DNA of 365 bases. Source: Escherichia coli. GTDB lineage: Bacteria; Pseudomonadota; Gammaproteobacteria; Enterobacterales; Enterobacteriaceae. Shown in pieces: positions 1 to 365 of the stretch. Under the pieces are notes generated by a model, which was not told the DNA's origin, made no database searches, and saw only the letters and a program-made list of their open reading frames with translations. How positions within the stretch are numbered: the first letter of the stretch is position 1; each line of letters starts with the position of its first letter. The position numbers and the translations under genes were made by a program. The stretch lies in the NCBI RefSeq assembly GCF_003334405.1, contig NZ_QOWM01000068.1; one strand, given 5' to 3'.

Positions 1-365
1 GCGCTGTTGGTCGCCAGGTAAAGATGCGGGCTTAACCGGATATCCGGCGGCAGCGCCCCCCACAGCCGCGCCAGCGTATGGCCGTCCGGCTGTGCTGCCT
101 TACCACCGCGCACCAGCCACATTGACTCACTGCGGCTGTACACCGCCTCCCCCGGCAGCAGCGGCTCAAAGTGAATGCTCCGCCCGCCGTTGTCGTTGAG
201 TATCAGTCCGTCATCACGTAGCTGTAAGCGGATATCAGAAGGCGCTTTCCAGCCGGGGCCGAAAACGCCCACCGGTGCAGGCGTCTTCGTCCGGTAGCTG
301 CTGTAGGTGCGGGAGAGAATGAACGGCAGCGGGCCGGGCAGCGCAAGGTCCGTCTCGCCGGGCAG
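1..365 (-). CDS. rhs: Internal fragment of an Rhs-family core protein (YD-repeat polymorphic toxin), N-terminal conserved region; partial at both ends
   Basis: Seen in sequence: the reverse-complement frame starting at + position 365 is open for 121 codons with no stop, and the trailing partial codon GC fits the Ala that I recall following ...LATNS in Rhs proteins. All other frames contain stops (for example minus frame 2 hits TGA after about 50 codons, minus frame 3 hits TGA after about 43 codons, + frame 3 stops at 33-35). Recall, not a search: the translation matches the conserved N-terminal region of E. coli Rhs core proteins (RhsA/B/C type), beginning roughly 55-60 residues into the protein, after the PAAR-like motif. 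High G+C (about 66%) also fits the known GC-rich Rhs core. Paralog is not assignable, so the symbol is given at family level only. Confidence 0.85.
   Translation of the reverse strand, partial: MPGETDLALPGPLPFILSRTYSSYRTKTPAPVGVFGPGWKAPSDIRLQLRDDGLILNDNGGRSIHFEPLLPGEAVYSRSESMWLVRGGKAAQPDGHTLARLWGALPPDIRLSPHLYLATNS

Follow-up and report, generated by a model that had tools for sequence, protein, structure and literature searches.

The 365-nucleotide stretch of Escherichia coli DNA analysed here, hereafter referred to as the window, lies wholly inside a gene of the E. coli RhsD/E subfamily of rhs genes and corresponds, on the opposite strand, to gene nucleotides 172-536. All 365 bases are identical (100%) to rhsD of strain K-12 (WP_000014739.1), where they occupy positions 9001-9365 of locus sequence L001 within a coding sequence running from 8830 to 13110, and the encoded peptide matches positions 58-178 of the 1261 positions of the NCBIfam RHS_core profile (E = 2.1e-75, 254 bits). 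An earlier note on this DNA, made from its letters, had assigned it to rhs, and both the identity to annotated rhs genes and the RHS_core match confirm that assignment. The gene is a known one: it was in E. coli K-12 that Rhs elements were defined, thousands of genomes carry an rhsD annotation, and nothing in the window is novel. The features placed in the window are the following, the second and third being predicted by homology:

1..365, minus strand: rhs core open reading frame, codons 58-178 plus the first 2 bases of codon 179 (identity to K-12 rhsD; RHS_core profile)
168..365, minus strand: most of the DUF6531 N-terminal plug, RhsD residues 58-123 (Pfam PF20148; Tse5 alignment)
3..167, minus strand: start of the shell (barrel) after the plug, RhsD residues 124-178 (RHS_core profile; Tse5 alignment)

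A megablast search with the window returned 3,764 matching records, 3,580 of which cover at least 80% of the query, and the best place reached at least 99% identity in 1,975 of them. When 60 evenly spaced rows of the megablast ranking were inspected, 28 had a window that was 100% identical; the number of complete E. coli genomes with the exact 365-mer is thus well above one thousand. In K-12 genomes megablast placed the window twice, once in rhsD and once at a site that is not rhsE; this second place is presumably one of rhsA, rhsB and rhsC, at ~80% identity, and rhsB of other strains matches the window at about 82%. A search of the window against Rfam gave isrB alone, whose 17.2 bits (E = 0.85) fall short of the gathering score of 35; this was treated as a chance match.

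Frame 1 of the minus strand is open for 121 codons, from window base 365 to base 3, and the remaining five frames of the window contain 2 to 6 stops each. The earlier note had reported an intact 121-codon frame without stating its strand; the frame is there, and the strand is the minus strand. The same note had taken the lack of stops to favour a functional gene, which is an overstatement, since some 20% of shuffled sequences are open too and since the identical window also occurs in dead genes (see below). At least one of the six frames was fully open in 923 of 5000 dinucleotide-preserving shuffles of the window (18%) and in 1194 of 5000 mononucleotide shuffles (24%). With 18-24% of shuffles open at 66% G+C (65.8% in the window itself), missing stops are therefore weak evidence of coding. 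Such numbers are what one would cite in favour of a frame that had arisen by chance in G+C-rich non-coding DNA, but that explanation can be dismissed, because the window is exactly identical to an annotated and profile-verified protein gene and because its G+C content by codon position (0.67/0.53/0.77 in minus strand frame 1) agrees with coding. Long antisense open reading frames without stops, of up to 353 aa, also cross the G+C-rich rhs core, for example at L001 11389-12450 on the minus strand. These are expected from composition and are not evidence of genes, and the same composition effect weakens the open frame of the window as evidence. A stop-free window of 365 bases at 66% G+C is thus weak evidence for an intact gene.

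Pfam DUF6531 (PF20148) matches RhsD residues 46-123 (E = 4.6e-18), of which the window covers 58-123, and the RHS_core profile match is unbroken through position 178. The best solved relative of RhsD is Tse5 of P. aeruginosa, a pore-forming Rhs toxin of the T6SS (PDB 8cp6; E = 7.3e-122 for the whole protein). Within it, RhsD residues 48-169 align to residues 1-118 of the Tse5 shell chain 8cp6_B (E = 1.8e-17), the first residue of that chain being the one opposite RhsD P48 in the alignment. Tse5 is cleaved between K47 and P48; its DUF6531 domain, residues 48-124, is an N-terminal plug that closes the YD-repeat barrel and holds a short PAAR-like N-terminal fragment (~47 residues) inside the shell, and its C-terminal plug bears the aspartyl protease that frees the toxin (PMC10684867). 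By homology, the peptide encoded by the window would comprise the greater part of the N-terminal plug, followed by the beginning of the shell. RhsD residues 124-178, the remainder of the window, precede any recognisable YD repeat: Pfam RHS_repeat matches begin weakly at RhsD residue 209 and reach E <= 0.001 only with the match that starts at residue 365. N-terminal cleavage of RhsD may take place at N47-P48, where Tse5 has K47-P48. As for the residues that such cleavage would release, the N-terminal sequence of RhsD reads 'KPAARQGD' and Pfam PAAR_motif matches residues 3-20 weakly (E = 0.22); the assignment of residues 1-47 as PAAR is a weak one.

K-12 provides the full-length reference. In MG1655 the gene order is ybbP, rhsD (L001 8830-13110), ybbC and then an orphan rhs fragment. 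The earlier note had proposed that the full open reading frame be examined for its length, about 1,400 codons being expected for an intact Rhs, and for an in-frame start preceded by a ribosome-binding site. In K-12 that examination yields an intact gene, with an open reading frame of 1,426 codons, an in-frame ATG start and a Shine-Dalgarno-like AAGGG 8 nt upstream of the ATG; the expected length was also a good one, as intact genes were found at 1,426, 1,406 or 1,402 codons. Against the NCBIfam RHS_core equivalog (NF041261), K-12 RhsD scores 2787.7 bits over profile positions 1-1261 and passes the cutoff of 2000. The YD repeats are situated outside the window: TIGR01643 YD_repeat_2x matches in 6 stretches (E = 1.8e-47), and a Pfam search covering RhsD residues 1-1000 gave 8 RHS_repeat matches at E <= 0.001, all of them outside the window. 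Towards the C-terminus, Rhs_assc_core TIGR03696 matches residues 1181-1258, and the PxxxxDPxGL junction is present as PLQQIDPMGL at aa 1249-1258. The G+C content is 63.3% in the rhsD core, 36.5% in the toxin tip and 30.6% in ybbC, which is located 40 nt downstream of rhsD. At the other end of the gene, the 430-bp ybbP-rhsD intergenic region (L001 8400-8829) has 28% G+C versus 63% in the core. This sharp boundary at the start of rhsD is consistent with a foreign origin of Rhs elements, which has long been proposed.

Two chromosomal loci carry the identical 365-mer: ybbP-rhsD-ybbC and yncH-vgrG-rhs-ISAs1, the latter corresponding to the rhsE position. When K-12 rhsD (L001 8830-13110) is compared with vgrG-linked genes (L002 6830-11051 and L003 6830-10920), identity declines along the gene, from 100% over the first 300 nt to 95-99% in the middle and 91-94% in the 3' core, and the tips are unrelated. 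Because identity between the two rhs loci is mosaic, the window is not assignable to one of them. In K-12 itself, the rhsE pseudogene (L020 5891-7939) retains only the 3' 1,566 bp of the core, equivalent to rhsD nt 2209-3774 at 95.8% identity, and has no match to the window; no vgrG lies between yncH and rhsE in K-12, and other strains have a vgrG and a full-length rhs there. All 19 loci with sequence (19/19) have the same 57-codon N-terminus, an in-frame ATG and a Shine-Dalgarno-like motif ahead of the window, and in every locus examined the gene upstream is either ybbP or vgrG and in no case a further rhs core. We consider it very likely that the window comes from a main rhs gene of the full-length type (rhsD, which follows ybbP, or the paralogue in the rhsE position, which follows yncH-vgrG), and that it encodes most of the plug and the first shell strands of a protein whose role as a T6SS toxin is proposed by homology.

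Two other origins for the window have to be weighed against a main rhs gene. The earlier note had kept in reserve an orphan core fragment, that is, a displaced piece made up of a dissociated C-terminal tip and a core stub. Orphan rhs fragments are described as common in E. coli (PMC2935791; PMC3150448), and one exists near K-12 rhsD, 400 bp downstream of it (L001 13518-14228). This orphan, however, matches only RHS_core positions 1169-1261, corresponding to rhsD nt 3526-3737, and the stretch held by the K-12 rhsE relic likewise lacks the window, whereas the window sits at core positions 58-178 with an ATG 57 codons upstream and, as described above, with a start codon and a ybbP or vgrG neighbour in every case. 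An orphan of the rhs-CT/rhsI type is rejected on these grounds, orphans and relics retaining the 3' end of the core and the window being its 5' end, and in no locus examined did the window lie downstream of a full-length rhs gene. The orphan alternative is contradicted by these findings and is, in our judgement, next to negligible. Megablast searches with the 5' window as probe and with a second probe of 365 bp, taken at the 3' core end, found 10,473 places in 3,761 genomes and 10,766 places in 3,598 genomes, respectively, counts that are uninformative on any excess of orphans because diverged subfamilies are picked up unevenly and because the 3' probe exceeds the core stub of an orphan. The converse case, a 5' relic in which a deletion has spared only the front end of rhsD, does occur in strain HH97, where a 222-bp remnant of the rhsD 5' end (L023 4830-5051), annotated 'DUF6531 domain-containing protein, missing C-terminus', is fused to DNA beside mnmH. 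Counted in coding orientation, that remnant stops at base 53 of the window, however, and the window is rhs for all of its 365 bases; the large majority of matching records that cover at least 80% of the query also argues against a relic, and none longer than that of HH97 was found in the sample. A 5' relic is for these reasons very improbable as the source of the window. HH97 has lost the remainder of the Rhs element together with ybbC and the orphans, and ~30 nt downstream of the relic junction there is a stretch of 16 C.

A main rhs gene may be intact or decayed outside the window. The note had cautioned that truncation could not be judged from within the window, and the caution was well placed, identical windows being found in intact and in pseudogene rhs alike. 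Our sample, which is small and not strictly random, consisted of 18 genes with a 100% identical window, 16 from the evenly spaced list together with those of H5 and H13. Eleven of the 18 are intact, at the lengths given above, and 7 are annotated pseudogenes. Four lesions, accounting for 6 of the 7 pseudogenes, could be placed, and all are downstream of the window:

nt 1006: C1006T, changing Q336 to a stop (Q336*), in strains AR_0162, ECO11 and ESY003
rhs nt 1904-2021: 118-bp deletion, in strain 504838
rhs nt 2341: insertion of one G (+1), in strain 0H25
near nt 3738: frame break with loss of the C-terminus, in strain E2863

The seventh pseudogene, that of strain SW071619, is annotated as frameshifted, and its first 1,236 nt are identical to K-12 rhsD. 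Since intact and disrupted genes at the two loci share the identical window, only the whole open reading frame can show whether a gene is a pseudogene. The possibility that the gene occupies the same position in the source strain and is a pseudogene there, the window being a part that has stayed undamaged in a dead or dying toxin gene whose lesion lies outside it, draws on the 7 of 18 genes so annotated and on the Q336* allele, which is found exactly in 127 genomes. Against it stand the 11 intact genes and the many K-12-derived genomes in the collection that carry an intact rhsD annotation; moreover, some 'frameshifted' annotations may be assembly errors, the indels in G runs of strain G5 being a case for comparison. 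We regard a pseudogene in the source strain as unlikely, if a possibility of some substance. For an intact source gene, the estimate over the sampled genomes is about 70-75%, unverified K-12 derivatives being counted as intact.

Further irregularities were noted in three of the strains. In strain G5, rhsD has three deletions, of 2, 1 and 1 bases, within the part that corresponds to the window (L022 701-1061); two of the three fall in G runs, and the gene is annotated as frameshifted, with 4,000 bp versus 4,281; these deletions look like long-read assembly error more than real decay. In 0H25, the vgrG gene (L002 4654-6762) upstream of the frameshifted rhs has an internal stop too, so that decay appears to extend over the vgrG-rhs module as a whole in this strain. 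In E2863, nearby ansP is annotated as frameshifted as well, which may instead point to the quality of the assembly.

The Q336* lesion is found at both loci, in rhsD and in the vgrG-linked rhs. Its sites are:

L015 1535: Q336* in rhsD of AR_0162
L018: Q336* in rhsD of ECO11
L004: Q336* in the vgrG-linked rhs of ESY003
L024 18473-22753 and L025 2285-6508: the two ESY003 genes, both with Q336*

A 61-bp probe centred on Q336* matched exactly in 127 of 3,437 genomes, mostly at two places per genome. The two ESY003 genes, rhsD and the vgrG-linked copy, share every base from the ATG through nt 2135, then differ by 47 mismatches in about 500 nt, show a single mismatch in the next stretch up to about nt 3400, and beyond that point diverge into different tips; their upstream regions are unrelated. 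In the vgrG-linked copy, codon 721 is a further stop. The mosaic pattern of identity between the two genes suggests inter-locus gene conversion, being what such conversion would produce, and Rhs elements have historically been defined as recombination substrates (hence 'rearrangement hot spot'). We lean towards the view that the ~2.1-kb tract around the window has been kept identical between the loci by inter-locus gene conversion, through which Q336* too would have reached both paralogues, in a lineage comprising at least 127 sequenced genomes. The stop shared by both paralogues would then be a small example of probable gene conversion between rhs loci and, if this is true, recombination at the 'rearrangement hot spot' would spread decay as well as diversity.

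The role proposed for the full-length product follows from the solved homologues Tse5, RhsA and Rhs1 and from the literature. The shell would enclose the C-terminal toxin, and the plug would close its N-terminal opening and anchor the PAAR-like piece, which in turn would mount the protein on the VgrG spike. The type VI secretion system would fire the assembled protein into neighbouring bacteria, the toxin would be freed by aspartyl autoproteolysis at the PxxxxDPxGL junction, and the small downstream gene, ybbC in the case of RhsD, would be expected to protect the producer. In reviews and in experiments on relatives, PAAR-Rhs proteins of E. coli are described as T6SS-delivered antibacterial toxins that need vgrG (PMC6730261; PMC3150448). 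At the rhsE-position locus, vgrG ends 67 bp upstream of rhs, and this vgrG-linked locus fits the PAAR-Rhs/T6SS picture. In the ybbP-rhsD loci examined, that of K-12 included, vgrG is not adjacent to rhsD, and K-12 is not known to have a T6SS. Delivery of K-12 RhsD is for these two reasons doubtful despite its intact open reading frame.

The gene from which the window comes can finally be set beside its known relatives. Compared with K-12 RhsD, it shows no difference within the window; its toxin tip and its intactness may differ. The rhsE-position 'RHS element core protein' (WP_000014719.1, 1,406 aa) shares with rhsD a 100% identical window and the same 57-codon N-terminus, but unlike K-12 rhsD it is encoded at another locus with another upstream region, has vgrG directly upstream and carries a different toxin tip. 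Orphan rhs-CT/rhsI modules belong to the same gene family and are found at the same loci as the window gene; unlike it, they comprise only the last ~90 core residues and a new tip. More distantly, Tse5 and RhsD share the DUF6531 plug at the start of the shell, and the short PAAR-like N-terminal piece of Tse5 may have a counterpart in the weak PAAR match of RhsD, whereas similarity in the window region is moderate, K47-P48 in Tse5 stands against N47-P48 in RhsD, and the toxin tips of the two proteins are unrelated.
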